Shown: positions 7,247 to 58,128 of the stretch, piece by piece | How the letters are laid out: every line of letters begins with the position of its first letter | Numbering within the stretch: the first letter of the stretch is position 1 | Origin: a virus | DNA length: 64,000 nt | Virus record (IMG/VR): IMGVR_UViG_3300032163_000002 | Coordinates: 32,001 to 96,000 of that record | Direction: 5' to 3' (one strand) | Program-made: the position numbers and the translations under genes | Notes under the pieces: model-generated | What the model was told of the DNA's origin: nothing | The model's database searches: none | Seen by the model: the letters and a program-made list of their open reading frames with translations, nothing else

Positions 7247-7275
7247 AACTTACACTCGTAAGATCAAAAAGTCAA
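7247..7275 (-). promoter_or_regulatory. Class B promoter TTGACT-17-TAAGTT with palindrome CTTAC-gagt-GTAAG
   Basis: Consensus shared by 8 sites; followed by AGGAGG RBS. Confidence 0.88.
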
Positions 7276-7931
7276 GGAGTATTTTCAGGCGAGGTTCCAT
7301 GACCTTTCCGAAGAAGACTTTCCCGCGCTTTTTTCAGCAGATCCTCCACCTTCGGCTTCCGCGCGGCCTTTACCTTCACCTTCAACGGAGCAATCTCCAG
7401 CATCCGGACTCGACGTTCATGGTATTTCACCGTTGCCTCCCACGTCTTGAGCTTCGTCTCGGTGAGCTTGAGCTTCGTGGTCCATCGCGCGACCTGAGCG
7501 CGCGCGTGCTGAAGCCGTGTACTAACCCGAATAGCGGGTGTGATTTTCTTGATGACAGGCACGCACTGGTCCAGTGGAAATGTGTTCAAGTAGGCGTAAT
7601 ACATATTCCAATTTCCAGAGTAGGAATATCGCGGACAGCCTTTCGTAACATCACGCCCAACTCCACAAATCATCCGCGCCATCGCCCACGCGAGCACCAC
7701 GCCAAATGGAGCCATATGAATAGAACGGTTGAATGTTCTTGGAAGACGCAGTCGGAGATACGCCCCCATGCCAGTCCTGCCTCCGCGACACTGAGGCCAA
7801 CGCCCACGAGTATAATCCACCCTGACTGCGAGCGCCTTCCGCTGAGCTGAGTTCAGTTCATCATCGGCCACACGTCGAATAATTGCCTTCAGGTGCTTCG
7901 TATCGTAGGTCGTCGCATTTACAATTTTCAT
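7272..7931 (-). CDS. Basic hypothetical protein, possibly a degenerate zincin-like domain plus coiled coil
   Basis: 219-aa ORF; helix VVLAWAMAR where an HExxH motif might be expected. Confidence 0.6.
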   Translation of the reverse strand: MKIVNATTYDTKHLKAIIRRVADDELNSAQRKALAVRVDYTRGRWPQCRGGRTGMGAYLRLRLPRTFNRSIHMAPFGVVLAWAMARMICGVGRDVTKGCPRYSYSGNWNMYYAYLNTFPLDQCVPVIKKITPAIRVSTRLQHARAQVARWTTKLKLTETKLKTWEATVKYHERRVRMLEIAPLKVKVKAARKPKVEDLLKKARESLLRKGHGTSPENTP

Positions 7932-8569
7932 TTTTCATCATCCTTCAGCATGCGCCCCGGCTGATCGGTAGGAATCTTCCAACATTCCAGTCGCGTGAAA
8001 TACTTGTTGCCGTAATGATCCGCATGAGGAACATCCTCGTAATGATCCAGCTCCAGTTTACGAAAGTAGGTCCATACGTCACCTTCACGAAATCCATTCG
8101 TCTCGTCCACGGACTGCTGCCAGATGAACCGCGTGCCGCAATGCACACAAATGTTCTTGAAATCTTCGCCCCCAACCGGATAAAGAAAGAGAGCTGCGTC
8201 GATTGCAATCAAGTGGCCTTTCTCGCAGAGGAAATATTCCATGCCTTCGTACGACATGCGCTACCTCTTTTTCGCCTTGAGGTTGAGCCCGGCCATGAGC
8301 CTGCGGTAGCTCCAACCGCAAAGCGAGCACCTGATGTCACTGGTTGCTTTCGAAGCGAACGCTTCGAGAATCGCGTCCGGCTTCACCCGAGCGCCCTTGA
8401 GTGCCCGCCTTGTGAGCGTCGCCTCTGCGCTGTACGGCCTCTGAAGCGACTTGCAGGGGACGACGATGGGAACGGTCAGGATGACTTCAAGCCTGCCCTG
8501 ACAGCCGGGAGTACCCCCAGCTTTTGAAATCCGTTTCGTTCTGGTTCTGTTCGGACACTTTACCGCCAT
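7928..8569 (-). other. Two small Cys-rich hypothetical genes (7928..8257, 8261..8569)
   Basis: Co-oriented ORFs following the promoter at 8606. Confidence 0.7.
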
Positions 8570-8605
8570 CGCATTCTCTTTCTACCGCTTTCTGCGGCCA
8601 TCCTC

Positions 8606-8634
8606 AATATAGGTTATTTATTACAGAAAGTCAA
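8606..8634 (-). promoter_or_regulatory. Class A promoter TTGACT-ttctgtaataaataacc-TATATT, with a 5' hairpin (8584-8598) and an IHF-like site (8656-8668)
   Basis: 17-bp spacer; paralogous to 2824-2908. Confidence 0.87.
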
Positions 8635-8665
8635 GGAGAATTTTAACTTGTTTATTTTCAATGAG

Positions 8666-8995
8666 TTAAACCTGCTCGTCTTCAGGCTCCCCGGTCTCAA
8701 TCACCTTGATTTTCTTTTCGTCTCTCAGCAGCATCTCATATTGATGAATGGACTGCTGACATGACACGATTTTCCTGTGTGCCTGTTTTTTCACTCGCTC
8801 AATAGCTTCTGAAAGAGTGTGCCACCATTCAGCTTTCGGAATAAAAAGGCTTGTACCGAATGAACCTTCTTTCGAAAAATAAACTTCACCACGCTCCGTA
8901 TGCACGAAAGCACCACCTGAAACTTTCAGGATGCCTTTCGTCAGACCCCATTTCGTTATGTAAACTGGTTCTGTTGAGGGCTCTTCAGTTTGCAT
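8666..8995 (-). CDS. Hypothetical protein (likely start MQTEE)
   Basis: ATG overlaps the stop of the upstream NTase gene; GGAGG RBS. Confidence 0.65.
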   Translation of the reverse strand: MQTEEPSTEPVYITKWGLTKGILKVSGGAFVHTERGEVYFSKEGSFGTSLFIPKAEWWHTLSEAIERVKKQAHRKIVSCQQSIHQYEMLLRDEKKIKVIETGEPEDEQV

Positions 8996-9492
8996 CAGGA
9001 ACCTCCTTTTTGTTTTGGAGCATCCATCGGAAGAGCGACGAGAAGAATGACACCCTCGATATTTTCGAGATGTGCTCGCTTCCTCGTCGCCTTGAAATCC
9101 GGACCTGCATGGAAAGGAAGAAGCTCGATCTGCCAACCCGCCCACCCTGCCGGAATCGTCCAGTTACCGGGAAAAACAGACTCGAATGGAATCGAATTTT
9201 CGCTGATGATGCGACGGATCTTTTCCTCGTGCCGTTCATTCACGATCAAGTCGATGTCCTTCGCGTTCTTCTTACCTCGCGCGACGGAACCGACGACCAC
9301 GACGTAGGAGGCGATGGCTTCGAGGAAGGCACGGGCTCTAGGAGTGAAACGGCTATGCGAGCGCACCGTCTGCTGCATGCGCTCCCACGTTTCGAGATCA
9401 TGACCGTTCGTGCTCGGACAGGTCGCACGCTCTCGAAGCATGTTTTTCCATCCACGATGATCTGGAAAGGCGGCTCGAATCGTAATCGACAT
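8995..9492 (-). CDS. Pol-beta superfamily nucleotidyltransferase domain protein, leaderless
   Basis: VVVGSVARGKKNAKDIDLIV matches GS-x-DxD; third acidic residue in QIELL. Confidence 0.8.
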   Translation of the reverse strand: MSITIRAAFPDHRGWKNMLRERATCPSTNGHDLETWERMQQTVRSHSRFTPRARAFLEAIASYVVVVGSVARGKKNAKDIDLIVNERHEEKIRRIISENSIPFESVFPGNWTIPAGWAGWQIELLPFHAGPDFKATRKRAHLENIEGVILLVALPMDAPKQKGGS

Positions 9493-9498
9493 ACAGGT

Positions 9499-9527
9499 AG
9501 GATAGGTTACTTATTACAGAAAGTCAA
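9499..9527 (-). promoter_or_regulatory. Class A promoter TTGACT-ttctgtaataagtaacc-TATCCT
   Basis: 17-bp spacer; 6 nt separate the -10 box from ATG 9492. Confidence 0.85.
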
Positions 9528-9922
9528 GCCCATTCTTTCAGTATTGCCTGCGCAGCAGCAACAGCGGACAGCTTCGGGGCGAGTTCTTGCGTGGCTGTTT
9601 CTAACGCCCTTCGCAGGGCTGCCTTCGGAGTCTTTCCATCTTCAACCCACCATTGACCGATATAAACAGTATAGGAATTACGACGTACGGAAATCTTCAA
9701 CCCACGACAACGAACCTCGTAATGCCAGCCAAGATCTTCCCATACACGAGGTTTCCACCCTGCTCCAAGTTTCGTCGATAACGAAACCGTTAAGAAGTTG
9801 ACGAGGCTCTGCGCGGCTTCCTTCGTTGCCTGATAATCTTTCCACAAGCACCCATAACCACACGCAGACGAACAGTAAATGTCACCTTTACGATGAGGGG
9901 TCCAGCTTAACCGCTTCTTCAT
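9524..9922 (-). CDS. Hypothetical protein
   Basis: 132-aa ORF. Confidence 0.7.
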   Translation of the reverse strand: MKKRLSWTPHRKGDIYCSSACGYGCLWKDYQATKEAAQSLVNFLTVSLSTKLGAGWKPRVWEDLGWHYEVRCRGLKISVRRNSYTVYIGQWWVEDGKTPKAALRRALETATQELAPKLSAVAAAQAILKEWA

Positions 9923-9943
9923 TGACTTTCACTTCTTCACGTT

Positions 9944-10079
9944 AAAAAAAGACTCACGCGACCGGTCCTGCCCCGGCTTCAGTGTGCAGCGAGGTTAGAT
10001 TTATGACCACCGGGACTGCGCACGCTCCCTCTGGTCTCATACTCGGCGCGTCATCTGGCCGTGCTGCGCGTGAGTCCAT
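9944..10079 (-). ncRNA. Candidate tRNA-like structured ncRNA (~135 nt); alternatively a 41-aa leaderless ORF 9954..10079
   Basis: Own class B promoter; 10-bp 5'/3' closing stem GACTCACGCG/CGCGTGAGTC; adjacent 5-bp stem with 7-nt loop GGCAGGA; U7 tail. Confidence 0.6.
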
Positions 10080-10085
10080 ACGGGT

Positions 10086-10114
10086 AACTTACACCCGTAA
10101 GATCGAAAAGTCAA
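10086..10114 (-). promoter_or_regulatory. Class B promoter TTGACT-17-TAAGTT with CTTAC-gggt-GTAAG
   Basis: Consensus match. Confidence 0.88.
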
Positions 10115-10123
10115 GCCCCTCAC

Positions 10124-10197
10124 AAAAAAATTTCCCGGCAGACCGGAAATCGTTGAGCCTGCCGGGTAACGCGAACGTGTGCCTTTCGGCCACGTTC
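10124..10197 (-). terminator. Two hairpins followed by a U7 tract (intrinsic terminator or small RNA 3' end)
   Basis: gaacgtg/cacgttc with inner GCC-GAAA-GGC; cccggcag/ctgccggg; T-run. Confidence 0.6.
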
Positions 10198-10226
10198 ACA
10201 GATTTTCTTAAAGGAATGATATCAGG

Positions 10227-10295
10227 AAAAAAAGAAGGGCGATACAGAACCCGGCAGCAAAAATCAACGTAACCCGCATACCGGGCCGCTCGTAC
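10227..10295 (-). terminator. Imperfect long hairpin plus U tract after ORF 10303..10767
   Basis: cccgg/ccggg stem followed by TTCTTTTTTT on the minus strand. Confidence 0.45.
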
Positions 10296-10302
10296 CATTC
10301 CA

Positions 10303-18841: not shown

Positions 18842-19060
18842 TCATCGCCCATCACCTCCTTTCTCTTGAAGAGCAAGACGAATTATTTCCTTCATAGCCG
18901 TGATTGTTTCGGGGATGCTGTCTGTACGCACCCAGCAATCGGGAAAATCCTTGCAGGTAGCGACGACACCAAGCGTCTCGGTCACGTCAAGATCAAGGTA
19001 GAAGCGCTGCTCATCCACCTCAATTATCGCCATCGAAGACGTGCTTGGTATTGAACTCAT
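18842..19060 (-). CDS. HicB-like antitoxin N-terminal domain protein, no HicA partner
   Basis: VVATCKDFPDCW...DSIPETI..MKEII.LAL resembles the HicB partial RNase H fold. Confidence 0.65.
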   Translation of the reverse strand: MSSIPSTSSMAIIEVDEQRFYLDLDVTETLGVVATCKDFPDCWVRTDSIPETITAMKEIIRLALQEKGGDGR

Positions 19061-19425
19061 TTCTGCTCAGTCACGATAACAGTAGGAGCTTCCGCCCCAG
19101 CTTTCAAATATTCAATCTTCTCGAAGAACTCATGAAGCATAAAAGCCACAGCCGCTTCTTTATGCTCGTGCTTCGGGTTAAACGAACCCATCATACAACG
19201 GATCATACGGAGCGCCTTGAGCGCATCAACGCCAGATCGAGGAACGACCTTGAGCCCGGAAATACCAGAAAAGAACCAGTCGTTGAAAAGTTTATTCTGA
19301 GAAGTATGCCCAGCGCCCCCTCTGATATGAAATTCCTCTGGAATTTTCGCCATCGGCGGCAAGAAATCTTCACAGTTCCCGAAAGCGATGTCAGCATCGG
19401 TGACTTCGTGAATCTTGAGTGTCAT
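19057..19425 (-). CDS. Conserved phage hypothetical protein (PKHEHKEA motif)
   Basis: First gene after the class B promoter at 19447. Confidence 0.75.
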   Translation of the reverse strand: MTLKIHEVTDADIAFGNCEDFLPPMAKIPEEFHIRGGAGHTSQNKLFNDWFFSGISGLKVVPRSGVDALKALRMIRCMMGSFNPKHEHKEAAVAFMLHEFFEKIEYLKAGAEAPTVIVTEQK

Positions 19426-19446: not shown

Positions 19447-19475
19447 AACTTACACTCGTAAAGTCAAAAAGTCAA
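19447..19475 (-). promoter_or_regulatory. Class B promoter TTGACT-17-TAAGTT with TTTAC-gagt-GTAAG
   Basis: Consensus match with one arm mismatch. Confidence 0.85.
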
Positions 19476-19526
19476 GGGCTTTCTGCGAAACTCCCTAAAG
19501 TGAAGACCAGCATCAAGTTACGTCGA

Positions 19527-21909: not shown

Positions 21910-22397
21910 GTTATTATTTCAGCTTGTCTAGTACGCGCTCGATAATCAAGCGTCAACAGTCGAGCCCCCTTCGGCAATTCGTGCTCGTCTTTCGCAGTTA
22001 CCTCAATCTCGTCAAACTTAAAATACAGTTCATTTCTCACGTCTTCTATGATGTATGGAGCGGTCACATCATTCACATTAAATTGTGTGTTCCCCAATGA
22101 AAGATTAAAGCTAGATATTTTCACTCCCTTGAACCAATAGCACCTCACCGGATCTCCAGCTTCCGACAGTAGCTCAACTTTGAACTCCCTGATTACACCA
22201 CTCAGATACATCCGGATCAACGCCAACCCATTTTCTTCCGTATGTATGAATTCTCGAAAAGAGATCCGACCATTCTTTTGCAGAAGGTCGATGTAGGCGC
22301 TCTCCACTGTCAAGCCAAAATATTCGCTGATGTATTTTGGCACATCCCACGGAATAGCGAATACGAAATTGAATGCTTTGATCGGCTCGAAATTCAT
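21906..22397 (-). CDS. Possible T4 gp19-like tail-tube-fold protein
   Basis: FEPIKAFNF start, KVELLSEAGDPVRCYWFKG and F.FD near the end resemble contractile tail tube proteins. Confidence 0.45.
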   Translation of the reverse strand: MNFEPIKAFNFVFAIPWDVPKYISEYFGLTVESAYIDLLQKNGRISFREFIHTEENGLALIRMYLSGVIREFKVELLSEAGDPVRCYWFKGVKISSFNLSLGNTQFNVNDVTAPYIIEDVRNELYFKFDEIEVTAKDEHELPKGARLLTLDYRARTRQAEIIT

Positions 22398-23617
22398 AGG
22401 GCAAGCTCCTCCACGTTCTCCCGAGTAGGTCCGTAGCTCCTGTATTTGATAGGCAAGTGGATCTCCCTGAGTAAAGACTGCTGGATGAGACTGTCCGTTA
22501 TAATTGGTGAGCGTAATTGATCCAGACAGGTCACAGCCAGCGTAGGTGGTGCCAGTATGCTCCTCGGAATTTCCGAAGAATCCTTGTCAATGGCTGCCTT
22601 GATGAGAGGCATGTCCAAATGCCCAAAGCGTAACGTACCCTGAAAATCATTCGGAGCATTCGTTTCATCCGGGTAAGAAATACTAAGGTCTTCCGTGGGA
22701 AACGGTCCTGCGCCATGCCGAGTCATGTAACCTCTGAGCACGTACACGACATCCAGTTCGTAAATCTTGTTCTGTCGCAAGTAGGGAATTACGTTGGTCA
22801 AGCCAGTGCGACTTCGTGTGACGTGAGGAAAAAACTTATGCTGCTCATCAAGAAGAAGTCCTTGAGCGCCCTCGAAGAGCAGATGACCAAAACCTTTCGG
22901 CGTCTCGTTAACAGTCGCCGCCTCGTCAAGAAATTGCTCCATTGCCCACATGAAATTCGTCAGCAGATGCTCCGACCAAAAACGTGACTCAAACATATCC
23001 TGTAAAGATGTCTCAAATTTCGCCGAAAGCCTCGGCATTAGCGCCGTTGCCCGACCTGCCGAATAGTCTCTGGAAACTACAAGAAAATCTCGCAACCACT
23101 CACGGGATGAAGCCTGATACACATATCCCGGAAGGGTTTCGCTACGTGTCACCGTCTCGTTAATCCCCACACCGCAGGAGCCATGCCGGGCACTGTGGCG
23201 CTGCTTCTCAAGCTCCTGATTCAACAGCATGTCCCACGGCGTAGTGAAAATAGCTTTACCATCTACGAACACAGGAGGGATCACAGCCATGACCTTACGT
23301 AGCTCTTCGCACTCCTTCTGCCACAACAACGGATTCACAATAAATTTGGAAGAAAGATAGGTAGCAGCACCCGCAAAAGTGCCACTACCAATGTGAGAAA
23401 AAGCATGGCGGTGTCTTTCCGGATCTGGTGTAACCGCTGTATGCCCAGCTTGTGCTCCGCCATTATACCGAATTACAAGCGTGTGCTCTGCGTCCTTGGC
23501 AGCGAAAAAATCAGTAATTAAGCCTTTTCCTTCATCACCCCAGCAAGCTCCTATAACCGCTGTTGCTCTCATCGTCAAAACTCCATATCTGGAAAGACTT
23601 TTATTTTGCGCCTGCAC
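22394..23617 (-). CDS. purA: Divergent adenylosuccinate synthetase-family (PurA-like) protein
   Basis: GACWGDEGKG, GGAQAGHT, FEGAQGLLLD, FPHVTRS, TRHGAGPFPTE; likely start ~23572 (MRATAV). Confidence 0.9.
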   Translation of the reverse strand: MQAQNKSLSRYGVLTMRATAVIGACWGDEGKGLITDFFAAKDAEHTLVIRYNGGAQAGHTAVTPDPERHRHAFSHIGSGTFAGAATYLSSKFIVNPLLWQKECEELRKVMAVIPPVFVDGKAIFTTPWDMLLNQELEKQRHSARHGSCGVGINETVTRSETLPGYVYQASSREWLRDFLVVSRDYSAGRATALMPRLSAKFETSLQDMFESRFWSEHLLTNFMWAMEQFLDEAATVNETPKGFGHLLFEGAQGLLLDEQHKFFPHVTRSRTGLTNVIPYLRQNKIYELDVVYVLRGYMTRHGAGPFPTEDLSISYPDETNAPNDFQGTLRFGHLDMPLIKAAIDKDSSEIPRSILAPPTLAVTCLDQLRSPIITDSLIQQSLLREIHLPIKYRSYGPTRENVEELAL

Positions 23618-26092: not shown

Positions 26093-26515
26093 TCACTTGA
26101 AGTCACCATCAGGCAGTTTATGCCACGGACGAGCATTATGAATTTCCTGCATCGTAGGAAAATTCTTTCCTTCAAATCTCCACGCGCGATCATCGAGGTA
26201 AATAAGGGCGGCAGGTTTTCTGTCAGTTACCTTGACTTCTTCGAACCCATGAATATCACCGTAAGTATCCCACATGATGTTGCCATATTTCTTCAGCCAA
26301 CGCCGCACCGCGCGCCGCCCCCTCCATGTTCGGCCTCGGGTCGTAAAGATCACTACAGCGAACTCCTGAAGAGTCTTATGAAGCCATTCGATAGCACCGG
26401 CTACCGGAGAGTCCGGAATGACATGCGGCGCGATCCACGGCGTGCTGTACTCATGAAGTACCCCATCCATGTCGCAGGCCACTGTATAGCGCCTTTTCAC
26501 CGATTCCACCTCCAA
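26093..26515 (-). CDS. HAD-superfamily phosphatase / 5'(3')-nucleotidase-like protein
   Basis: DMDGVL (motif I), FTTR (II), KP...YLDDRA (III/IV). Confidence 0.88.
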   Translation of the reverse strand: MEVESVKRRYTVACDMDGVLHEYSTPWIAPHVIPDSPVAGAIEWLHKTLQEFAVVIFTTRGRTWRGRRAVRRWLKKYGNIMWDTYGDIHGFEEVKVTDRKPAALIYLDDRAWRFEGKNFPTMQEIHNARPWHKLPDGDFK

Positions 26516-26520: not shown

Positions 26521-26549
26521 AACTTACATCCGTAAGAAGCTCCTGTCAA
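26521..26549 (-). promoter_or_regulatory. Class B promoter TTGACA-17-TAAGTT with CTTAC-ggat-GTAAG
   Basis: Consensus match. Confidence 0.88.
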
Positions 26550-26559
26550 GAGGCAGCGC

Positions 26560-29500
26560 TCATTTCTTTCTCCCCTTCGTCTTTACCAGACTCATCAATT
26601 CACTCAAACGCTGTAGCTCAGAAAAAATATCCGTCATAATATCGTGTGCGATTTTTTTTGCTATCGGCCCTAATATCAACACTTTTCTATTCGGGTTGTA
26701 CAGGCAGTATTTCCACCGGCAATGATTCGGGTTCACCGGACACCGCGCAGGTAGCTGCGCATGTTTTTGTTTTTTCAGCGCAGGCTTGGGACCGTCTAAT
26801 CTGTGCGTAGATTTTCGCTTTGCGTTTTTCACGTTTCTCCAAAGCTTTTATAAGGCGCTTCTCGGTCAGTCTCCGTTCACATGGATTCTGCTCGATAATT
26901 CCCTCTGAAGGCTTCACATCATCTTTCACGAAATTCAAACGAAGATTCTTGAACGGATCTTTTACAACTTTAGGTGTTGATGGTGAAATGAAATTTACTT
27001 TCGTTCCCTCTGGAATCACAGCCGCCTGTTCCTCTGATAATTCAGCGATAGCACGAAGTTGTTCCATGATTTCAGGAGGTGGTGCTGGAACAGAAAATAC
27101 TTCCTCTTGTCTCTTCTCTGCTAGAACACGAAGCTGCTCATTCACAGCTTCTACCCCTGAAGATGCTCCACCTTCATCAACAGATGCAACCGGCAATTCC
27201 TCGGATTTTTGCTCTTCCATACTTTCCCCCTTCACACCCCCTTTTTGACAAAGGTTCTTGTTATAACTATGTCCTTACACCCCAAAAGGGTGCCCCCCTA
27301 CAAAATTCCCCGATTGTCATTAACATGCGTGCACCATATTTACGTACTTACGTTACCCCTGTAACCTTATCCACGTTAAGATTCCTTCTTTTTCTCCATA
27401 GATTTAACTTTCAACTGAACAAGCGCCTCATTCAAGTCAGCGATCAAAGCTCTGATCTCGTCTGGACCACCAATGAACCACTCCTGACAGGAATGAGGCA
27501 GGTAGGCCCCGTAGAAGCCCACACGTAAGGAATCCTTCAGATCATCCTTACGCCTAGCGTCCCCGACAAAATGCTCCCCATTCAAACGCGAACAAAAGCT
27601 CCCATCCGCAATACAGAGCATATCCCTACAATTTGTTGTGAGTTTAAGGTCGTCCTTGCAGTACGCCATGCTTTTTCTCTACTTTTTTCTTAGATTTGTT
27701 CTTGAAAATCTTCTTGATGGTCGGAACCGGAAAAGAGTCTATGAAAGTACCATAGGGGACAGGCTCAGCAGAAACCGGCTCATAAAGGCAGTTAAAAAAT
27801 GCCTGCCGAATACGCGCAAGGCCGCTAGGCATGAGTGCGATTCCAACGAGACTCACGAGGAAAACAAGCAAAGGAAGAAAATGAAAATCTATCTTCGCTG
27901 CGTACAGAGGTAAGCTACGTTCCATAAAAATTCTCCTCTTAAAGTTTCAAATGAATTATTGGATTTGGGTCATCCGGTTCTTCATTTAGGCGAGACAAAA
28001 TCTTGCCACGAAGAGCATCCAGAATCTCCTCTACGTTTTCCTCCTCCTTTTTCTTTTCTACTTGTATCTTTTTCTTGGCAGCTATTGATACTCCTGCCTT
28101 GGAATCAAAGCCAGCCATAAGATCGAGTTCCTTCTGCTCTTCCATCCACTCCATCACAAACTTGTCATCAAGATGCGCGGGGGGAAACGACCGTGTATTA
28201 TCAATCTGCGTAGAAAGCTTACCATGAATATATGCCCGAATTCCCTCGGGAGAAGCTGACTCCACGAATTTATGAAACAAGCCTGTATAAACTTCTACAC
28301 CCCTAGAAAACGCCTTTTCCACCATACTGCTTCTGGTCTTGATTCCACTTACATCCGTAAAACTGGAAGGCAGTGAAAATTTCGTAGATAAAATTGCAGT
28401 AGCACTTTTGGCTTCGCTGAGCGCGCTTTCCAGTCTTTCACGTTCACGATAAAGCCAGATAAGATCGAGCTTCAAACAAACGAGAAAAGAACGAAACTGC
28501 TCAGCATCCTTCAATTCACGAAACGTAATACGCTCCCCTTGCGGAGCCTTTAGACCATTGAGTAAATCCACAAAATTCTGATTCAGTTGAAGAACACGGC
28601 GCTCATCCACATGCAACTTTTTCTTACTCATAATTACATCCTGTCAGCGAGAATCTTCGCCCGAATGGCTGAGAAGTCTTTTTCGAAAGCTACAGCCTCC
28701 GTTTCCTGCTTGTTGAAAGGTGGTAATTCACCTACACATTCAAGGCGCAGATCCGCCAAAGTCGTATAATTGACCAATAAATGCGAGACGAAATCTGTCT
28801 GCACAGTCAATCCCTTAAGCGTAGGCAGAATTACAACATTTTCAGCGGCAAGCTTCAAGCCACCTTTTGCTCCAAATGTAAGCTTAGTGCCCATCCACCG
28901 AATTTCTACTGTGTTGATATTATGCATGGTATTCCGCAGATAAAGATGTACCTGACCATCACTTGCGACACTTGAAGCCGTAATGTGTGCCTCTATCGGA
29001 TGCTCATTGGTAACTTGATAAATTGGACGTGAACCCTCCAGCGAGAAAATCCCTGTAAACACGACAACTCGTTTGGAAGGCAATGAAACCGTTCCACGAG
29101 ACGCCCGTTTACTGGAATTCCTATGAATTCTTTTCACGCATTCCTCGCCAATAACTTTTCACGCGCCACCGCGAGTAAGTCTTCAACCTCACGTTCTTTG
29201 ATTTCTGCAACATACCGGGCAATACTCGGAAATGTAGGGAGACGAAGGCTGGACGTGACCCATGAAGAAGAAATAGCTGGTTGTATGCTCCGCGCCATCT
29301 TGAGATTTTTCTCAAACTCTGCACCGCAAACCGGAAGATACATTGATGTACCGTTGATAAATTCCATTCGCTGCTTTAGGAGCTGTGCTACGGTTGAAAA
29401 CCCAAGATCACTCGCAAAGAATTCAACTTCTGAAAGTGCGATGACACATTCCACCGCTATAACTTCCGTAGGTATCTTCTCTATTTCAGGATGTCTGGAA

Positions 29501-30327
29501 TAAAAAAGCTTCGCAAGCCCATGAACATAGGCGAGACTGATCTCCTGAATTTTGCCTTCCGGGGGTTTCTCTCCCCGATGCATGTCGTACAGCCCCATCA
29601 TTTTTTTACGAAGCTCGATGAGATTCTCTGTAGCAGAAACAGAAGGGGGGTTAAAGTCATTTGCAAAGTCACCCAGCTTTGGGTGCGATTTTTCAAGAGA
29701 AGAAGACTCCGTAGAAATCAAAGGAAGATACCCCCGGTCATCATCTTCTACGCCTCCATTGACCGCCGTAACTAGTTTCAATTCTTTAGTTACAGCTTCT
29801 ATCTCCGTGTCTGATTTTTTTTGATGAACTCCCGCAGCTTTATCCTGCTCGTTCATGAATTTCACAAACTCAGGATGAAGCGGCCTGCTACTGTGAAATT
29901 TATCCATCGCCATGCCTCTTCACGGTATAGCGCTTGTCATGAAGCCACTTGTTCCACTTTCGAACCTGATGCCACTTCCACCATTTCAGCACCCAGCGCA
30001 TTACGAAACACCCGATGGAAAAACCGAGTAGAGTCCAGAGCACCCGAAGACCCCATATCTTCGTCATGATTACTCCGCCTCCATCTCCATGAGCAGGCCA
30101 CGCAGTAGCTTCAGCGCCGCTGTACGCTCGGAGGTTGCCGTGAGAGGGTAGGAAGGCAGGTACTTGCCGTTCGCGTCACGTAGCTCTCCGTGGACATGCA
30201 GAAGAGCCGAAGCTTCAGGGCTGACCTTCCAGATCAAACAGATAGGGGAAAAAAGCTTGGCGGAATCCGGCCAGACCGTATATCCGGCTTTTTGAAGCTC
30301 GCGGATAACCTCAACGCGATTCATCAC
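26560..30327 (-). other. Hypothetical genes (26687..27235, 27376..27669, 27644..27925, 27939..28631, 28634..29137, 29134..29913, 29900..30067 Trp-rich membrane peptide, 30070..30327)
   Basis: Contiguous ORFs; 29900..30067 (55 aa, MTKIWGLRVLWTLLGF...) is not in the ORF track. Confidence 0.65.
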
Positions 30328-30333: not shown

Positions 30334-30362
30334 AACTTACACCTGTAAGAATAAAAAGTCAA
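30334..30362 (-). promoter_or_regulatory. Class B promoter TTGACT-17-TAAGTT with CTTAC-aggt-GTAAG
   Basis: Consensus match; 6 nt separate the -10 box from GTG 30327. Confidence 0.88.
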
Positions 30363-30402
30363 GGGAAAAAGAAAAGGGTAATAACCCACGAAACTGCTTA
30401 CT

Positions 30403-32528: not shown

Positions 32529-32534
32529 ACTCTT

Positions 32535-32563
32535 AACTTACACCTGTAAACTAAAAATGTCAA
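32535..32563 (-). promoter_or_regulatory. Class B promoter TTGACA-17-TAAGTT with TTTAC-aggt-GTAAG
   Basis: Consensus match; 6 nt separate the -10 box from ATG 32528. Confidence 0.87.
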
Positions 32564-33009
32564 GCCCTTTTTTTCGTTCGATTCACTATGGCACACCCCG
32601 ACATTAAACGTTCATGAACGTGCCGAACAAATTTCGTGCTGAACTTGTAATGCCCGGACACCTGCTTGTAAATTGTCTCTAAATCCGTGTCTGTCTTCTC
32701 TCGGGCTGCTTCGACAGCTAGATAAAGTTGAAGCTCAGTCCAGATTCGATTCCAGACCCGCATGCGGGGAATAACAAATGTCTTGCCACTATACAACGAA
32801 AGAAATTGTCGAAAAGTTTCAAGAGTAAACCCAAAACCAGCAAAATCCACAAGCTGTGGGCAAGCAGGAGACGCCAGCGCGATGAAAAGTCGAAGTGCAT
32901 CCTTCTCACTAATCTTGCTTGTGAAATATCTTGCAGAAATTTTCGGAAGTGGAGCGAAATCTGTGGCAAGAATTTCAATAGATTCCCTGATCTCCCTCTT
33001 CAATGTCAC
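32560..33009 (-). CDS. Mor/C-family-like transcription activator
   Basis: FLSLYSGKTFVIPR (Mor-type G..xYIP) followed by a C-terminal HTH-like segment. Confidence 0.55.
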   Translation of the reverse strand: MTLKREIRESIEILATDFAPLPKISARYFTSKISEKDALRLFIALASPACPQLVDFAGFGFTLETFRQFLSLYSGKTFVIPRMRVWNRIWTELQLYLAVEAAREKTDTDLETIYKQVSGHYKFSTKFVRHVHERLMSGCAIVNRTKKRA

Positions 33010-33854: not shown

Positions 33855-34523
33855 TTAGAGAATCGCAGCCGCGCCAAGCACCGGAGGAAGGCCCTCACCA
33901 CCAAGCTTGAGGGACAGCACTTCGGCGTCAGTAACCGGAATGTCCCCCGGAATCTCCGGGACAACCGGAAGCCCCGTAGCCACCTTGATCGCACGAGCGG
34001 CTTCAGTTTCCGACGTGATCTTCCGAGGGCGCCCCCGACCGCGCTTGATCGGAATACCGTCCGACCCGAGTGTGACAGGCTTCGGGGGACGGCCACGACC
34101 GCGCTTGATCGGAATACCGTCCGGCCCGAGTGTGACAGGCTTCGGGGGACGGCCACGACCGCGCTTGACTGGGGCGCCAGCCACGACAGGCTTCGGGGGA
34201 CGGCCACGACCGCGCTTGACGGGGGCGCCAGCCACGACAGGCTTCGGGGGACGGCCACGACCGCGCTTGACGGGGGCGCCAGCCACGACCGGTAATGCAG
34301 ACACAGCCGCCGCAGGAGAAGAACCTGCAACAGCGGGAGTCTGCTGCCCCTGAGCGTACTTGTGGAGCGAAATGAACTCAGTTTGCGCCGCCGTCAGTGG
34401 ATGAACTCCACCAGAGATCCGACGCGCGATGTTCGAAAACATGAGGTAGGCGTAAGGGTTTGCCTCCATCGCCTGCGCGATGACATTAGAGGCGGCTTCG
34501 ATAGGGGTCAGGATCTTTTTCAT
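33855..34523 (-). CDS. HMGA-like protein with five AT-hook motifs
   Basis: KRGRGRP(P/R)K x5; ATG 34523 preceded by GGAG RBS. Confidence 0.88.
   Translation of the reverse strand: MKKILTPIEAASNVIAQAMEANPYAYLMFSNIARRISGGVHPLTAAQTEFISLHKYAQGQQTPAVAGSSPAAAVSALPVVAGAPVKRGRGRPPKPVVAGAPVKRGRGRPPKPVVAGAPVKRGRGRPPKPVTLGPDGIPIKRGRGRPPKPVTLGSDGIPIKRGRGRPRKITSETEAARAIKVATGLPVVPEIPGDIPVTDAEVLSLKLGGEGLPPVLGAAAIL
34020..34290. repeat. Coding repeats (60-bp and 51-bp units) encoding the AT-hooks
   Basis: ggccacgaccgcgcttga repeated. Confidence 0.9.
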
Positions 34524-34525
34524 GA

Positions 34526-34969
34526 TTACTTCTCTCCTTTTCTTTCCAGATTCATGATGTTCGTTACGGTTCCAAATTGAATCCACTTCGGGGCGTTTTC
34601 TCCTTCGGACCAAGAGACTACCATATATTTTCCGGGTTTCAAAATTCCAAGGTAAGATTTCGGGACAGACGCTACCGCTGAAGGCCGAGACTTGCTGTAG
34701 GAAATCCTGTATGAGGTATCGGCAGTGCCGTCCGAGGAAACCAGACGGATGAAGCCGGTATTCTTGTCGTAGAGCCAGATGATGTGACTCGGACGGCCCA
34801 ACGCGGCCAGTGCGTCACGAGTCAAGGTAATCTGCACTCCGTTTCTCGTTATCCTCACGTAAGGCTGCTCAAGCACGGCGTTGAGCGGAACCGGCAACTT
34901 CACAGGACGCCGCCTGCGCGCCCCACGTTTCGGCCCTATCATCACGTTAGAGACTTCCATTTCATTCAT
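34526..34969 (-). CDS. Possible AbrB/SpoVT-like swapped-hairpin DNA-binding protein
   Basis: VRIT..G.QITL.R....ALG....I.W..D....IRL pattern. Confidence 0.45.
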   Translation of the reverse strand: MNEMEVSNVMIGPKRGARRRRPVKLPVPLNAVLEQPYVRITRNGVQITLTRDALAALGRPSHIIWLYDKNTGFIRLVSSDGTADTSYRISYSKSRPSAVASVPKSYLGILKPGKYMVVSWSEGENAPKWIQFGTVTNIMNLERKGEK

Positions 34970-35243: not shown

Positions 35244-35278
35244 CTTACGAATGTAAGACTTCAAAAAGGAAAAGTCAA
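35244..35278 (-). promoter_or_regulatory. Variant promoter TTGACT-17-TACATT with the CTTAC-N4-GTAAG palindrome shifted toward +1
   Basis: Perfect palindrome at 35244-35257. Confidence 0.8.
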
Positions 35279-53133: not shown

Positions 53134-53163
53134 TAACTTACACCTGTAAGTTAAAAAAGTCAA
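53134..53163 (-). promoter_or_regulatory. Class B promoter with extended palindrome TAACTTAC-aggt-GTAAGTTA
   Basis: Consensus match; AGGAGG RBS follows. Confidence 0.9.
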
Positions 53164-53172
53164 GGGGTATTT

Positions 53173-54129: not shown

Positions 54130-55518
54130 CTATGTTCCTGTTGAGGGTAATGTTTCAATTTCTTCTTCGAGTGTACCAATCTTGTTTAGAATTTCAGGAG
54201 CACTGACTTCACGAGTAGAAAAGATTCCGGGTTTTGCAAACACACAAATGGAGTAATCTTGATCAAAAGAAATTTCTTGATATGGTTTTCCAGAACGGTT
54301 TTTTGCGACGAAGATTCTAGCTTTATTTTGCTGGGATTCTTCAAGTGTTTGACAGATACCAAAAATGTGATCAGAAATCCAAGCTTTACTGATGTCTTCT
54401 GAAATATCTGCAAGCCCAACAATCTTTTTACCGATGGCGTCACGTTTGGCCTGAGTTGCGGTAATAACGGATATTTTATGATCTTTTGCAATTTTGTGTA
54501 GCATGGTATAGATTGAGTTTAATTCAAAACGACGGTCTTTGTAAGTATGTGAAGGTTTCATCAGATCCGCGTAATCGACTATGACGGTATCCGGAGCAAA
54601 CCCCGAATCCTGCTTCAATGTGTCGATCAGGCCAGAAAGCTGTTCAGGTGTCAAGGTCATTTCAGAATAGCCAACAATCCTGAGGGCATCTCCATATTTT
54701 GAAAATTGCGTTTGCATCCGTCGCTGCACTTCTCCTGTCATGTCTGTGAGTCGGTCGAATGGAATACCAGAAAAAGAGGAATCGAAACGGTCAGATACGG
54801 CATCCGGTTCTAATTCAAGGGTCACATAAAGAGCCTTAAAACCATAAAGTACAGCCTGCCGCGAGCAATGAACTAAAGCCTGCGATTTTCCTATTCCTGT
54901 TGCTCCAACAAAAACAGTCAACGTACTTGGGCTTATCCCCCCTCGGAGATAACTGTCAAGATTTCCTATCGCACAAGGTATACGCCGGTTGTAGATACTC
55001 GTTAAATCAAGACGCCGATCTGAACGCTTTTCCACAACTTCAGGAAGAAAGAAATCTACAGTACCAAAATCCCGGTCCACAGCAACCATGTTCGCTGCGG
55101 TGATCTCCTTTAGAATATCATCAAAATTGTTTCGTTCGAGGGCTTTTTCTGACTCGGCCAATGCATCCGAAAATGCTCGATGCCGAATATAGACCCGCAA
55201 ATGATCCACATAAAACGGTAAATCTACAAGCGGAGCATCCAGAAGATCCTCGAAGGTTTTCGCATATACGTTCCGTTGTTCTTCTGTGAGCGCAGGATCG
55301 GTAGCGAAGAAATCTACCATGACTTCGAAGCTCGGTGCATGCCCGTAAGTCTTAACATATTCAGCTATGAAATTTGCAATCGCGTTATAATAAGTATCCG
55401 ACCAGAAATCCGGCGTCAGAAGAGGCCAGAATTTCCGATAGAATCCTTCGTCAAAAAATACAGCCGCCAACAAGACACGAAGTGCCTGTGGGCTAAGCTC
55501 GACAAACGTAGCGGGCAT
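54130..55518 (-). CDS. DnaB-family replicative helicase
   Basis: GATGIGKS, TLEL, IVDYADL, TATQ, AKNR.G. Confidence 0.94.
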   Translation of the reverse strand: MPATFVELSPQALRVLLAAVFFDEGFYRKFWPLLTPDFWSDTYYNAIANFIAEYVKTYGHAPSFEVMVDFFATDPALTEEQRNVYAKTFEDLLDAPLVDLPFYVDHLRVYIRHRAFSDALAESEKALERNNFDDILKEITAANMVAVDRDFGTVDFFLPEVVEKRSDRRLDLTSIYNRRIPCAIGNLDSYLRGGISPSTLTVFVGATGIGKSQALVHCSRQAVLYGFKALYVTLELEPDAVSDRFDSSFSGIPFDRLTDMTGEVQRRMQTQFSKYGDALRIVGYSEMTLTPEQLSGLIDTLKQDSGFAPDTVIVDYADLMKPSHTYKDRRFELNSIYTMLHKIAKDHKISVITATQAKRDAIGKKIVGLADISEDISKAWISDHIFGICQTLEESQQNKARIFVAKNRSGKPYQEISFDQDYSICVFAKPGIFSTREVSAPEILNKIGTLEEEIETLPSTGT

Positions 55519-55892
55519 TAGCCGCCAAGCTCTAGTACCGGGATTCCTTTCGTTCGAGCACGTTCCACCATATCCGCTGTACCTCTACCCCCCGGAAAAG
55601 CCAGCAAAACATCTGGATGCCAGTGTTCGAGAAGTCGCTCATTACGAAGTGGTCCAGCCGCTTTTCCTTCAGTTTTCCAGTCTGCATTTTCAACCGCTAC
55701 GCTAAACCCAAAAAATCGTTTTGCTAAAAATTCAGCTAATGCGTCCGCTCCTTGCGCTCCACCAGTTACAACTGTCACCTTGGGGACGTAAGAATAACGG
55801 TCCAATGCATTGAAAACACCGTCTTCATTGTTGTAATTACGCCCACCACAAACAGCGACAACCAAACCACGGCCATTCAAGCGTCCGTCCAT
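55518..55892 (-). CDS. SLOG-superfamily (YspA/DUF2493-like) protein
   Basis: VCGGRNY, GGAQGADALA, ADW...G.AAGP.RN, AFPGG.GTADMV. Confidence 0.9.
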   Translation of the reverse strand: MDGRLNGRGLVVAVCGGRNYNNEDGVFNALDRYSYVPKVTVVTGGAQGADALAEFLAKRFFGFSVAVENADWKTEGKAAGPLRNERLLEHWHPDVLLAFPGGRGTADMVERARTKGIPVLELGG

Positions 55893-55908
55893 TTTATTCC
55901 TCTTTCAG

Positions 55909-56601
55909 TTATTGAAGGTAATCGGCTAAGACGGCAGACATTGCCGGATCACTGCTAAGCGTCGGGGCTAACTGCCTGAACTCCGGAAGAGACCAGACAT
56001 AGTCACGAGGAAGAAGCCTGACTAAGAACGGATCTAAAAGAACATCCGATATCGTCTTCATATCTACACGCGATACCATGATGTTTTTGAGCGTAGCCTC
56101 ACCAGATTTCAAAATATTCTCCGGACACCGCGCGCCCTGAGACATTTGCACCCGACGGAGCCACGCTTTATACCGAGATACGCACCCAGCGTTGACACCT
56201 AAATACCGCCACGTCGGATAAGTCGTGGCGTAAGGTGTTGGCTTAACCCACTCGACAAATTGTGCTTGTAGAAAATGAAAAACGCTAATGTGCTTTTCCC
56301 CGCAGAACCGAAGAATAGCACAAATCGGTTTCCAAAGCTTTAGATTTTCAGCATGAATTCCATTACGCAACACACCCCGGTAATAAGTCGTAACAGAATG
56401 TTGTTGCACAAGTTTTTCATAAAATTGAAGGGCTTGAATAACCTGCATCCGGTTGAGACCTTCCGGATTTCGTAAATGAACCGAGGTCTCATACGCTAGT
56501 TTTCTCCGCTTTATTGTTGGGCCAGAGGAATTCTTGGTCTTCCCCGTCGTCATCATCGTATTGCTCCAACGATGCCGTAACAGGTTGCTGCTGTGCGACA
56601 C
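55909..56601 (-). CDS. Hypothetical replication-module protein
   Basis: 230-aa ORF between the SF2 helicase and DnaB; start codon uncertain. Confidence 0.7.
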   Translation of the reverse strand: MSHSSNLLRHRWSNTMMTTGKTKNSSGPTIKRRKLAYETSVHLRNPEGLNRMQVIQALQFYEKLVQQHSVTTYYRGVLRNGIHAENLKLWKPICAILRFCGEKHISVFHFLQAQFVEWVKPTPYATTYPTWRYLGVNAGCVSRYKAWLRRVQMSQGARCPENILKSGEATLKNIMVSRVDMKTISDVLLDPFLVRLLPRDYVWSLPEFRQLAPTLSSDPAMSAVLADYLQ

Positions 56602-58093
56602 CGCTCTCGTACACGGAAATGGTTGAGAAAATCTTCTCGTCTTCGTAAACCTTCAATCGCGCCTTGAAATGTTTGAGCAAATAAGGATTCGTCAAATCAA
56701 GAAAATCTATGACCTCAAGCGAATGCCCTCCTTCCTTGATACGAAGTCCGCGCCCGATCCGCTGCATCACCCGCACAAAGCTTTTTGTTGGAGCCGCAAG
56801 AATGACCACATCAAGATCAGGAACATCGGTGCCTTCATCAAAAATAACCGTGGAGACAAGAATTGAAAGCGCCCCGCTTCGAAGATCAGCTACGGCCTTG
56901 TTGACAATACTCCGGTAAGACACGGAAGCCATATCTTTTCGTGCAATGAAAATGGCAGGGGGGAGAGTCGGATCACCTTTTTTCAAAGCTACATATTCAG
57001 CTTCAAGATTCCGAACCAATTTAACGCTAAAGCCCCCGACGACCAGAACCCGCTTTCCAGTCTTCGCCCGCTCCACAGCAAGCTCCATGATCCTTCGGGA
57101 CCGGCCTTCATTGCCAATGATCAGGTAGTTCAGGGCCTCCCGCCAGTTGTAATGACTGCACCCTGCGGGCTCTGAGACCTCGTAGACGATCAACCCAGCC
57201 TGTGCCAGCTTACCTTGCCTCTGAAGCCGTTCAGGCGGAACATCGACCAACAGGGGGCCTGTGCAGCCCATCAGGACCAGATCCGTCTCCTCATCCTTCG
57301 TGAAGGGGGTGCCGGACATGCCGACTCTAACCTGAGCCGGACAAGCGTCGAGAATCGCCCTGAAGGTGCGATCACCCTTTCCAACCCGATGGGCTTCGTC
57401 AGCTATCACAACGCGACTCTCCCGTAGAAGAGACAAAACGTAGGGGTCTCTAACGTAGAGCCGGGAAGCCAGCGTGTCAATGCTCCCGATGAGAAACTTC
57501 CCCGGTTTGTTGGTCTCGGCCATGATGATGCCAACACGCTCAGATCCGAGAAACTCGCAGAATCGTTCGTAGGTTTGGTCCACAAGCTGTTGTCCATGAA
57601 CGAGTACAAGGGTCGGGACATCGAAAGCATGAGCTATCATCGCTCCCACAAGGGTCTTACCGCCCCCGGTCGCAATCCGAAGAACGCCACGCTGATCACC
57701 GGGGTAGTTGGCCCGGAGAACCCTCTTGACAGCGTCTACCTGATAGTCCCACGGAGTCAGTGACCCGAACGGCCCGGTAATGGGGTTGACGACGGGTAAG
57801 AACTCAAAACCTTCCGGCATGAAAAGTTCGACCGGAAATCCTGCTTTCGTGAGAGCTTCCGTAACTAAAGACAAAACACCTGAAGGAAATGCCCCTCCTG
57901 TACTTAACAGATGAAGCTTTCCATCCCAACGTTTCTGCTTATAAGCTGTTGTCCAGAAATAACCTTTCTTGTAGCAGGAGGTTACTTCGTCAACAATATT
58001 ACGGGGATATCGGCTTAGAAACCTCGCGCGCTGCGCCCCAACCAGAATGTTCATTTTTGTTCCAAGCGGAAGAGGAAGCTGCACAGCAGGCAT
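56489..58093 (-). CDS. SF2 DExH helicase (UvsW-like), leaderless
   Basis: WDG...L, DYQ, ATGGGKT, DEAH, SGTP, EG.D.P, Q.IGRGLR. Confidence 0.95.
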   Translation of the reverse strand: MPAVQLPLPLGTKMNILVGAQRARFLSRYPRNIVDEVTSCYKKGYFWTTAYKQKRWDGKLHLLSTGGAFPSGVLSLVTEALTKAGFPVELFMPEGFEFLPVVNPITGPFGSLTPWDYQVDAVKRVLRANYPGDQRGVLRIATGGGKTLVGAMIAHAFDVPTLVLVHGQQLVDQTYERFCEFLGSERVGIIMAETNKPGKFLIGSIDTLASRLYVRDPYVLSLLRESRVVIADEAHRVGKGDRTFRAILDACPAQVRVGMSGTPFTKDEETDLVLMGCTGPLLVDVPPERLQRQGKLAQAGLIVYEVSEPAGCSHYNWREALNYLIIGNEGRSRRIMELAVERAKTGKRVLVVGGFSVKLVRNLEAEYVALKKGDPTLPPAIFIARKDMASVSYRSIVNKAVADLRSGALSILVSTVIFDEGTDVPDLDVVILAAPTKSFVRVMQRIGRGLRIKEGGHSLEVIDFLDLTNPYLLKHFKARLKVYEDEKIFSTISVYESGVAQQQPVTASLEQYDDDDGEDQEFLWPNNKAEKTSV

Positions 58094-58099
58094 GGTTAA

Positions 58100-58128
58100 A
58101 ACTTACACCCGTAAGAGAAAAAAGTCAA
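58100..58128 (-). promoter_or_regulatory. Class B promoter TTGACT-17-TAAGTT with CTTAC-gggt-GTAAG
   Basis: Consensus match; 6 nt separate the -10 box from ATG 58093. Confidence 0.9.

Follow-up and report, generated by a model that had tools for sequence, protein, structure and literature searches.

The DNA analysed here, called the window, is the whole stretch of 64,000 nucleotides corresponding to positions 32001-96000 of the 141,027-bp virus record IMGVR_UViG_3300032163_000002, whose GC content is 47%. Positions are those of the window unless preceded by the word genome. Between about 100.3 kb and 1 kb, the genes of this phage are carried by the minus strand; the large terminase and the portal are encoded in a block of plus-strand genes (100.4-110.5 kb), and the remainder is again minus-strand. 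The element under study is a palindrome, CTTAC-N4-GTAAG, which overlaps the core of a family of promoters lying between open reading frames (ORFs). The genes behind these promoters, i.e., the regulon, include a helicase, a DnaB-like helicase and a primase, a CobS-like and CobT-like pair, PolA, RecA, Mre11-like and Rad50-like proteins, RusA-like and HNH nucleases, an adenylosuccinate-synthetase homologue, a putative late sigma operon, many small ORFs and one candidate non-coding RNA (ncRNA).

Architecture and conservation of the palindrome promoters

The exact palindrome is present seven times in the window (at 7249, 10088, 26523, 30336, 35244, 53137 and 58102), versus 0.05 expected from dinucleotide shuffles, and the variant TTTAC-N4-GTAAG is found at the sites 19447 and 32535. 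The eight canonical sites of the window all read cTTGAC[TA]-N7-[CT]TTAC-RRRT-GTAAGTT on the minus strand, i.e., TTGAC[TA]-17 bp-TAAGTT. The palindrome (14 bp) thus covers spacer positions 8-17 and the first 4 bases of the -10 box. The whole genome contains 11 canonical sites, three of them beyond the window end (genome 96654, 98918 and 99863). A twelfth promoter, at 35278, reads TTGACT-17-TACATT and has the palindrome (35244-35257, centre ATTC) 8 bp further downstream. The count for the whole genome is therefore 12 palindrome sites, versus 0 for the reversed control pattern. Each of the 12 occupies a gap that separates minus-strand ORFs. Other near-matches are limited to two copies with one mismatch, both within ORFs, about 4 being expected by chance.

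The information content of the aligned sites peaks at -36 to -31, -22 to -18 and -16 to -6, and drops over spacer positions 1-7 and the flanks on either side. The arms of the dyad pair perfectly over 5 bp in 10 sites and over 4 bp in the other two, and the centre is RRRT in the canonical sites. The left block (-22 to -18) is the exact reverse complement of the block at -13 to -9, the chance of which is about 0.5% for a conserved 5-mer. The -10 box TAAGTT is invariant in 11/11 canonical sites, and its non-consensus bases A-10 and G-9 are precisely those needed by the right arm. The dyad spans -22 to -9 in 11 promoters and about -14 to -1 in the shifted copy, i.e., it overlaps the core promoter in all of them. 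The chance of a shifted palindrome falling on the -10 box of an otherwise unrelated TTGAC promoter is about 1e-4 to 1e-3; this is a single case, in which the site is independent of the promoter register. It is very unlikely that the dyad arose by chance, and its occurrence in another register supports the view that it is a unit of its own.

Two other readings of these sites were tried and rejected. A promoter of the canonical type in register with the shifted palindrome would have TCCTTT as -35 box and TAAGCG as -10 box. An antisense promoter using the reverse-complement hexamer TAACTT would have no conserved -35 box. Separately, the sequence TTTACGGATGTAAGTG is found at 28346-28361 (minus strand), inside the ORF 27939-28631; it matches the operator block throughout, with the RRRT centre and the next T, and has no -35 box. 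This copy could be a chance copy with one mismatch or an internal operator.

The initial annotation had described eight intergenic minus-strand sites with TTGAC[TA], a 17-bp spacer and TAAGTT, the same palindrome in another register of TTGACT-17-TACATT, and a divergent plus-strand promoter at 58138 (TTGACA-17-TAAGTT) without left arm; all are recovered as described, including 8/8 window sites. Its statement that the arms are conserved while the centre varies is correct for the arms and has to be amended for the centre, which is not free (RRRT in every canonical site). It had named an equal frequency of the motif in coding DNA as an argument against a regulatory site, and the distribution is the opposite (12/12 intergenic, with the two one-mismatch copies in ORFs). 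The view of a single promoter family with sigma-70 geometry is supported by the shared -35 box, 17-bp spacer and -10 box.

Agreement with sigma-70 promoters and position of the start codons

The -35 box is TTGAC[TA] and the spacer is 17 bp in 12/12 sites; position -36 is C in the 11 canonical promoters and A in the shifted one. Both TAAGTT and TACATT keep T-12, A-11 and T-7, and match TATAAT at 3/6 and 4/6 positions, respectively. A generic sigma-70 scan, which overall performs no better than on shuffles of this sequence, lists the shifted promoter (35278) only; the 11 canonical sites fall below the cut-off because TAAGTT fits TATAAT at only 3/6 positions. With a consensus -35 box, a spacer of 17 bp and a -10 box that is weak yet competent, the twelve sites would be used by the host RNA polymerase with its primary sigma factor.

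The position of the start codons gives independent, though indirect, support to the assignment as promoters. The ATG of a real ORF lies 6-7 nt past the -10 hexamer in 5/12 sites (P about 2e-5), the ORFs concerned being the 534-aa helicase, a 195-aa, a 134-aa and a 76-aa ORF and the 41-codon ORF or ncRNA. The ATG is then where the transcription start is expected, thus leaderless mRNAs are implied, and many transcripts of this phage are probably leaderless. Start codons located 6-7 nt past the hexamer without ribosome-binding site are observed at 58094-58099, 32529-32534, 10080-10085 and 9493-9498, and at genome 96618-96625 and 98882-98889.

The coordinates of the promoters, of the two main proteins and of the other motifs are collected in Table 1.

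Table 1. Promoters, motifs and proteins considered in this work (window coordinates unless stated otherwise; the last four rows compare the promoter of the primase/ATPase gap between phages).
Feature	Position	Strand	Description
Palindrome promoter	7247-7276	-	cTTGACT-17-TAAGTT, CTTAC-GAGT-GTAAG; serves 149-aa ORF 6775-7224 and downstream genes
Palindrome promoter	10086-10115	-	Terminator-like hairpin 10132-10149 ahead; serves ~130-nt candidate ncRNA or 41-codon leaderless ORF
Palindrome promoter	19447-19476	-	TTTAC left-arm variant; serves 122-aa ORF 19057-19425
Palindrome promoter	26521-26550	-	Serves 135-140-aa ORF 26093-26515
Palindrome promoter	30334-30363	-	Hairpin and T-run ahead; serves 84-aa ORF 30070-30327
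Palindrome promoter	32535-32564	-	TTTAC variant; directly after the sigma operon; ATG 6 nt past -10 opens 134-aa ORF
Palindrome promoter	53135-53164	-	Between primase and CobS/MoxR-like ATPase genes; heads ATPase, CobT-like, PolA, RecA run
Palindrome promoter	58100-58129	-	Helicase, DnaB-like helicase, primase operon; ATG of 534-aa helicase 6 nt past -10
Shifted-operator promoter	35244-35278	-	TTGACT-17-TACATT; heads operon of p81, p147, AT-hook protein, putative late sigma, p149
p147	34526-34969	-	Best candidate operator binder; Arg-rich N-terminal tail and two AbrB-like halves
Putative late sigma, 258 aa	33006-33782	-	Two-domain divergent sigma; N-terminal domain gp55-like, C-terminal domain sigma-4-like
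Second-class promoters	1633-1662, 2846-2875, 8606-8635, 9499-9528	-	Copies in the window
Second-class promoters	genome 41527, 40634, 34874, 33661, 31829, 30505; variant 28047	-
ACTATCTT motif	genome 140009, 123843, 63070, 52343, 46176, 26372	-
ACTATCTT motif	genome 109177	+
ACTATCTT motif	31070, 20343, 14176		Copies in the window
Primase/ATPase promoter, source phage			TTGACT-TTTTTAA-CTTAC-AGGT-GTAAG-TT
Primase/ATPase promoter, G002			TTGACT-TCGGGTT-GTTAC-AGGT-GTAAT-AT
Primase/ATPase promoter, L021			TTGACA-CTTCAAACTTGACGTGT-TAATAT
Primase/ATPase promoter, G001			TTGACA-GTTTTATATTTATCGTGC-TAGTAT

Some sites call for a comment. At 10086, the ATG of the 41-codon ORF is 6 nt past the -10 box, and the fold of the alternative ncRNA candidate is no better than that of shuffles (z = -1.3). 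Judged by eye, the ORF 26093-26515, which contains a DxDGV motif, resembles a HAD phosphatase; a Pfam search gives no match for it. The mRNA started at the 32535 promoter is probably leaderless. The small-RNA promoter at 58138, on the plus strand, is arranged back-to-back with the 58100 promoter.

The operon behind the shifted operator

The shifted operator precedes five genes, in the order p81, p147, AT-hook protein, 258-aa protein and p149. The same five-gene order is found in a related contig, L025, behind the standard promoter of that lineage.

The AF2 model of p147 has a predicted local distance difference test (pLDDT) score of 84 with 11 homologues. The only VIA structural match that stands out is MraZ, a single chain with two AbrB-like halves (1n0e_A, Z 6.4, root-mean-square deviation (rmsd) 8.7 A over 100 residues), the next match having a Z of 3.6; after MraZ come plant B3 and one archaeal AbrB-like barrel. 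Foldseek returns nothing for p147 at E <= 0.001, and Pfam and PDB sequence searches give no match. The candidacy of p147 follows from its predicted, internally two-fold DNA-binding fold, its position behind the odd operator and its conservation in the clade alongside lineage-specific dyads. On this model, p147 would be a reasonable candidate for binding the palindrome.

The 258-aa protein is modelled with a pLDDT of 80 from 14 metagenomic homologues, as two helical domains joined by an acidic disordered linker. For the N-terminal domain, the best VIA match is T4 gp55 (7d7d_F, Z 10.7, rmsd 3.6 A, 109 residues) and the next matches are sigma-2 domains. For the C-terminal domain, the resemblance is to sigma region 4 (2h27_D, Z 5.0). 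Nearly all entries of the Foldseek list for this protein are sigma factors, and it matches no Pfam or PHROG family. According to these models, the 258-aa protein is probably a late sigma factor, which the shifted operator would make part of the regulon.

The AT-hook protein (34020-34289, minus strand) contains tandem 51-bp repeats, each encoding a (V/I)KRGRGRPPKP hook, and its L025 homologue is rich in hooks too.

The promoters of related phages

Four relative contigs were reached through homologues of the CobS/MoxR-like ATPase, namely G002, G001, L025 and L021, the metagenome scan adding only L021. Closer protein homologues (P0002-P0004) have 83%, 72% and 61% identity. The closest relative, G002 (53.5% GC), shares 51-81% amino acid identity in shared genes with at least 240 aligned residues, and about 35% in two small ORFs. 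G001 and L025 (64% GC) come from a common sample; L021 has 49% GC. The primase gene alone, used as a query, finds no relatives, and the exact 30-mer promoter pattern finds no record besides the source phage among the viral contigs.

The promoter located in the gap between the primase and ATPase genes is orthologous in all four relatives. G002 has a second GTTAC-AGGT-GTAAT copy, ahead of the homologue of the gene behind the genome 96654 site. It thus keeps TTAC-AGGT-GTAA in two orthologous promoters, while the preceding 7 bp have diverged. In the lineage of G001 (L016, L023 and L024) and L025, 12 promoters read TTGACA-GTTCGATCTTGATCGTG(C)-TAnnnT with variable hexamers. The consensus GTTCGATCTTGATCGTG of their spacers holds another dyad, CGATC-TT-GATCG, i.e., two GATC sites, where the source phage has its palindrome. 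This dyad has a mean of 2.75/5 complementary pairs per site, versus 0.3-1.6 in shifted registers. Three promoters of the source phage read TCGATCTTAC, i.e., the G001 element minus one G. From these few genomes, the spacer operator would be a feature of the whole clade, its sequence being swapped between lineages.

The motif search of the whole genome and relatives, which the initial annotation had proposed, has extended the family (11 canonical genome sites) and has found the palindrome kept in G002.

Other promoter classes in the phage

A second class of promoters (6-7 copies) reads cTTGACT-TTCTGTAATAA[GA]TAACC-TAT[AC]TT. The -35 box is that of the palindrome class, and the spacer is fully conserved and non-palindromic. 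The class can also be written TTGACT-TTCTGTAATAAGTAACC-TATATT and is also named the GTAATAAG-spacer class. Its spacer contains direct GTAA..GTAA repeats and no dyad. Several copies are followed by a 5' stem-loop (GGCCGCAGARAGCGG), and one of the operons concerned holds an endonuclease VII homologue.

A third motif, ACTATCTT, is located a few bases upstream of Shine-Dalgarno sequences and has no -35 box. Judging from this arrangement, it is likely a late promoter class and a candidate target of the gp55-like sigma. The core of ACTATCTT resembles the -10 region of the second class, AACCTATCTT.

Search for other regulators

Four proteins had been put forward as regulators in the initial annotation, and the proposal gains support for one of them, 34526-34969, i.e., p147, which has a predicted MraZ-like fold and lies behind the shifted operator. 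The other three are not retained. The protein encoded by 32560-33009 gives no DNA-binding signal and, like p147 and the other genes of its operon, is conserved in a relative devoid of the palindrome. The one encoded by 59284-59772 (minus strand, 162 aa) has a helix-turn-helix (HTH) very like sigma region 4.2 (ISRERVRQI) followed by a Cys-rich repeat of homing-endonuclease type, and nothing ties it to the motif. The one encoded by 62468-63085 (minus strand) has a domain like the RNA polymerase alpha-CTD, a zinc ribbon and a C-terminal HTH, again with no tie to the motif.

The 162-aa HTH/HNH-repeat protein is the sole match of the genome to Sigma70_r4 and phrog_351, and Sigma70_r2 has no match in the genome. 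Its Atlas look-alikes, which are weak leads (features 0.82-0.84, TM <= 0.39), hint at sigma-r4 HTH and homing-endonuclease-repeat proteins. Those of the 214-aa HTH protein hint at HTH proteins of small-terminase or transposase type, with scores up to 0.95. Judging from their domains, either of the proteins encoded by 59284-59772 and 62468-63085 could touch the -35 box or UP-element DNA.

Other features of the genome

Cultured phages are all distant: PolA is 28% identical to that of Bacillus SPO1-like phages, and a megablast of 10 kb of the genome against cultured phages gives no match. Scans of genome contigs for the host find none, and tRNA and Rfam searches of the window find no element.

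The large terminase (1121 aa, L011 6408-9773, plus strand) and the portal (979 aa, L011 9809-12748, plus strand), at genome 100408-106748, are both far above usual length and contain stretches that match endonuclease, thymidylate-synthase and ribonucleotide-reductase families, pointing to inteins or other inserted elements. The record's 109-bp "direct terminal repeat" sits within a tandem repeat with a period of about 135 bp at the contig end (genome 1-131 and 140763-141027), and may be an assembly effect, not a true terminus. The adenylosuccinate-synthetase homologue (22394-23617, minus strand, Pfam E = 4.7e-41) adjoins an ORF of 293 aa whose counterpart in G002 has 81% identity. With a family A polymerase also encoded, a genome with 2-aminoadenine (Z-base) of the PurZ type is a possibility.

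Proposed mechanism

The preferred reading, which we hold to be about as probable as all others taken together, is that 12 host-type promoters carry a fused 14-bp dyad operator and that one repressor, for which p147 is the best candidate, shuts the regulon jointly. A dimeric or internally two-fold protein would occupy CTTAC-N4-GTAAG and keep the polymerase off the promoter core. A single factor would in this way shut down or hold back the whole early/middle regulon at once, i.e., both replication operons, the recombination and nucleotide-metabolism genes, the small ORFs, the candidate ncRNA and the late sigma operon. The binder would most likely be encoded by the phage, the MraZ/AbrB-like p147 being the best candidate. 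Expressed from the shifted-operator promoter, p147 would limit its own synthesis.

What the analysis shows is the motif, its geometry, its restriction to promoters, its conservation in one relative and the modelled folds of p147 and of the sigma; use by the host sigma, repression rather than activation, the identity of the binding protein and the time at which it acts are what we infer. Sigma region 2 holds T-12 as duplex and melts the DNA from -11 onward. A protein sitting on GTAAG at -13 to -9 would clash with the open complex, therefore occupancy and open-complex formation would be mutually exclusive. Repression is also favoured because two registers suit a steric block, and not an activator that depends on geometry. 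Activators that bind between the hexamers (MerR type) need a spacer of 19-20 bp; a site of this kind is ruled out here, the spacer having the optimal 17 bp in all sites. Phage_integrase, Resolvase and ParB_N have no match in the genome, i.e., the lysogeny apparatus that goes with a P1-type immunity regulon is not found. Because of this lack of integrase, resolvase and ParB, a temporal switch in the lytic cycle is more likely than a role in lysogeny.

A more specific scenario can be drawn, which is tentative and, taken as a whole, distinctly less probable than the reading above. A clade of large and seemingly virulent phages would time its early-to-late switch by means of a single-chain two-fold MraZ/AbrB-like repressor, co-transcribed with a gp55-like sigma and an AT-hook protein. 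Its operator would be present in every early/middle promoter and would have been replaced between lineages (CGATC-N2-GATCG versus CTTAC-N4-GTAAG, the latter with the -10 box as half-site).

Several observations weigh against a dedicated repressor: (i) a CTTGAC element is present at the same register in relatives devoid of the palindrome, so that the left arm may descend from CTTGAC; (ii) the outermost pair of the arms is T..G in two sites of the source phage and G..T in G002, which is asymmetric for a homodimer; (iii) among about 70 proteins compared with Pfam or PHROGs, no Cro/CI, LexA-like, ribbon-helix-helix or MerR regulator is found; (iv) the fold match of p147 is modest, as the Z and rmsd values given above indicate, and its operon is conserved in the palindrome-less lineage too; (v) the second class has an equally conserved 17-bp spacer without dyad, thus conservation of the spacer alone is no proof of a dimeric binder in this phage; (vi) -10 boxes of the TAAG type without left arm are found at 58138 on the plus strand, at genome 99891, in L021 and in L025.

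Alternative explanations

The strongest of the rival explanations, unlikely in our estimation and yet to be taken seriously, is that YTTAC-RRR-TGTAAGTTA serves the transcription machinery itself as a class label. There would be two temporal classes of promoters and no free repressor, the symmetry being a by-product. The reader of the label would be the host polymerase, either with a sigma-binding or sigma-like factor of the phage or through a contact of the core enzyme with the spacer. The second class, whose spacer is fully conserved in 6-7 copies and not palindromic, agrees with this view. So do the relatives, in which CTT(G)AC and GTG occupy an unchanged register and the -10 boxes are ordinary and variable, and the promoter that has TAAGTT as -10 box without left arm. 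The phage also encodes sigma region 4-like and alpha-CTD-like proteins. However, a label read at a fixed register would be unreadable in the shifted palindrome 35244-35257, for which chance is very unlikely. The exact complementarity of the two blocks is also left unexplained, and the only sigma region-2 match is the gp55-like late sigma, whose likely target is ACTATCTT, without -35 box.

The claim of the initial annotation, that a dimeric phage regulator controls a regulon of the host RNA polymerase, thus comes out in part: the overlap of both registers with the melted DNA favours a repressor, whereas the second class and the palindrome-less relatives keep alive a rival in which the polymerase or a factor bound to it reads the motif.

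It is improbable that the operator is bound by a regulator of the host (e.g., a dimer of CRP/FNR, LexA or GntR type), which would tie the replication and late-sigma genes of the phage to a host signal. The rhizobial CRP-family protein Clr binds TGTTAC-N4-GTAACA (PMC10187061), which has the same core. TTAC-N4-GTAA also occurs in TTGAC promoters of viral contigs with unrelated flanks: there are two copies in L045, and a distance of 64-69 bp separates the two copies of L031 and those of L048. Such a regulator would moreover fit with the fact that no clear phage repressor is found. Against it, the flanking G and C that are important for Clr are C and G here, and the motif differs between related phages, which fits a co-evolving phage factor better.

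In L031 (7083-7163) and L048 (3694-3783), the copies form (G/C)TTAC-N4-GTAA(C/T) pairs, one member being inside a TTGAC-17 promoter; in L031 the downstream gene is like a ribbon-helix-helix repressor. L045, L031 and L048 were considered as relatives and rejected, their flanks having no protein similarity; they are unusable for covariation.

Repeated copying of one promoter cassette, with the dyad inherited without function, deserves as little credence as a host regulator. Pairs of promoters do share 40-58 bp at 84-92% identity (e.g., genome 62326-62365 and 85127-85166). But divergence has affected spacer positions 1-7 and the flanks and has left the arms and the -10 box unchanged. In addition, G002, whose proteins differ by about 45%, still has the palindrome in its orthologous promoters, and the shifted copy lies outside the cassette.

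Lastly, a hairpin in read-through RNA or in single-stranded non-template DNA, acting as a signal for processing, pausing or polymerase loading, is very improbable and was dropped: all variants of the outer pair can pair on the sense strand when G-U is allowed (C-G, U-G in two sites, G-U in G002), but the stem is too weak (only 5 bp, -2.4 kcal/mol, and -0.8 kcal/mol for the variants), the four inner pairs are invariant and show no covariation, the consensus -35 box stands in a fixed 17-bp relation, which is a feature of DNA, and the Rfam search of the window gives no match.

Comparison with known systems

The repressor-operator system proposed here is a familiar type of control in a new phage; it is no new regulatory principle. 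The operators of phage P1 are asymmetric 17-mers scattered round its genome, one of which controls the late-gene activator Lpa. In P1, C1 acts as the repressor of promoters close to the operator sequences that it binds on the phage genome (PMC8198154). The likeness lies in the dispersed operators under one repressor, the shifted operator controlling here the putative late sigma operon. On the contrary, the P1 sites serve the lysogeny of a plasmid prophage, whereas the present sites are 14-bp dyads joined to the -10 box in a constant register.

In Cluster A mycobacteriophages, one repressor binds many short stoperators throughout the genome (PMC9283540, PMC6550527). Many copies of one short site across the genome are also what is seen here. 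Stoperators are, however, asymmetric, bound by a monomer, and halt elongation within transcription units in one orientation, whereas the present sites are symmetric and inside promoter cores. An identity with stoperators was considered and rejected, the sites being neither asymmetric nor within transcripts.

Classical operators, such as LexA boxes, lambdoid OR/OL and lac O1, are dyads of 12-20 bp that extend over the -10 box or the start site, and their binders compete with RNA polymerase. In 11 of the present promoters, by contrast, the -10 hexamer supplies the right half-site with its first four bases, which forces the uniform non-consensus TAAGTT.

The model of p147 suggests the double swapped-hairpin barrel of the promoter-binding repressor MraZ. 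MraZ binds direct repeats as a large oligomer. Moreover, p147 differs from it in having no match to MraZ at the sequence level, and the fold match is modest.

With T4 are shared early promoters for the host sigma with an extended phage-specific consensus, a gp55-like sigma and a late motif without -35 box. T4 switches between classes by proteins bound to the polymerase (AsiA/MotA) and by ADP-ribosylation. Its promoters are not known to carry a dyad operator, and the sigma of the present phage would have an extra sigma-4-like domain that is absent from gp55.

Two further identities were rejected. The site is not a Clr-type CRP/FNR site: the core TTAC-N4-GTAA is common to both, the flanks are C..G, and the centre is at -15.5, not near -41.5 or upstream. 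It is not a cre-like site of CcpA either, the arms of cre having the opposite orientation.

Significance for the phage and its clade

The motif serves to define three classes of promoters in this phage, i.e., the palindrome class, the GTAATAAG-spacer class and the likely late class ACTATCTT without -35 box. It gives a map of the transcription units in an uncultured clade of 141-kb phages, most genes of which are unannotated. It also links the putative late sigma operon with the replication genes through a shared control element, and the probable leaderless transcripts are a hint on the host of the phage. If the pairing of the operator with p147 is true, it would provide (i) a compact and portable repressor-operator pair, in which the operator doubles as the -10 box, for use in synthetic circuits; (ii) a documented case of operator turnover between related phages.

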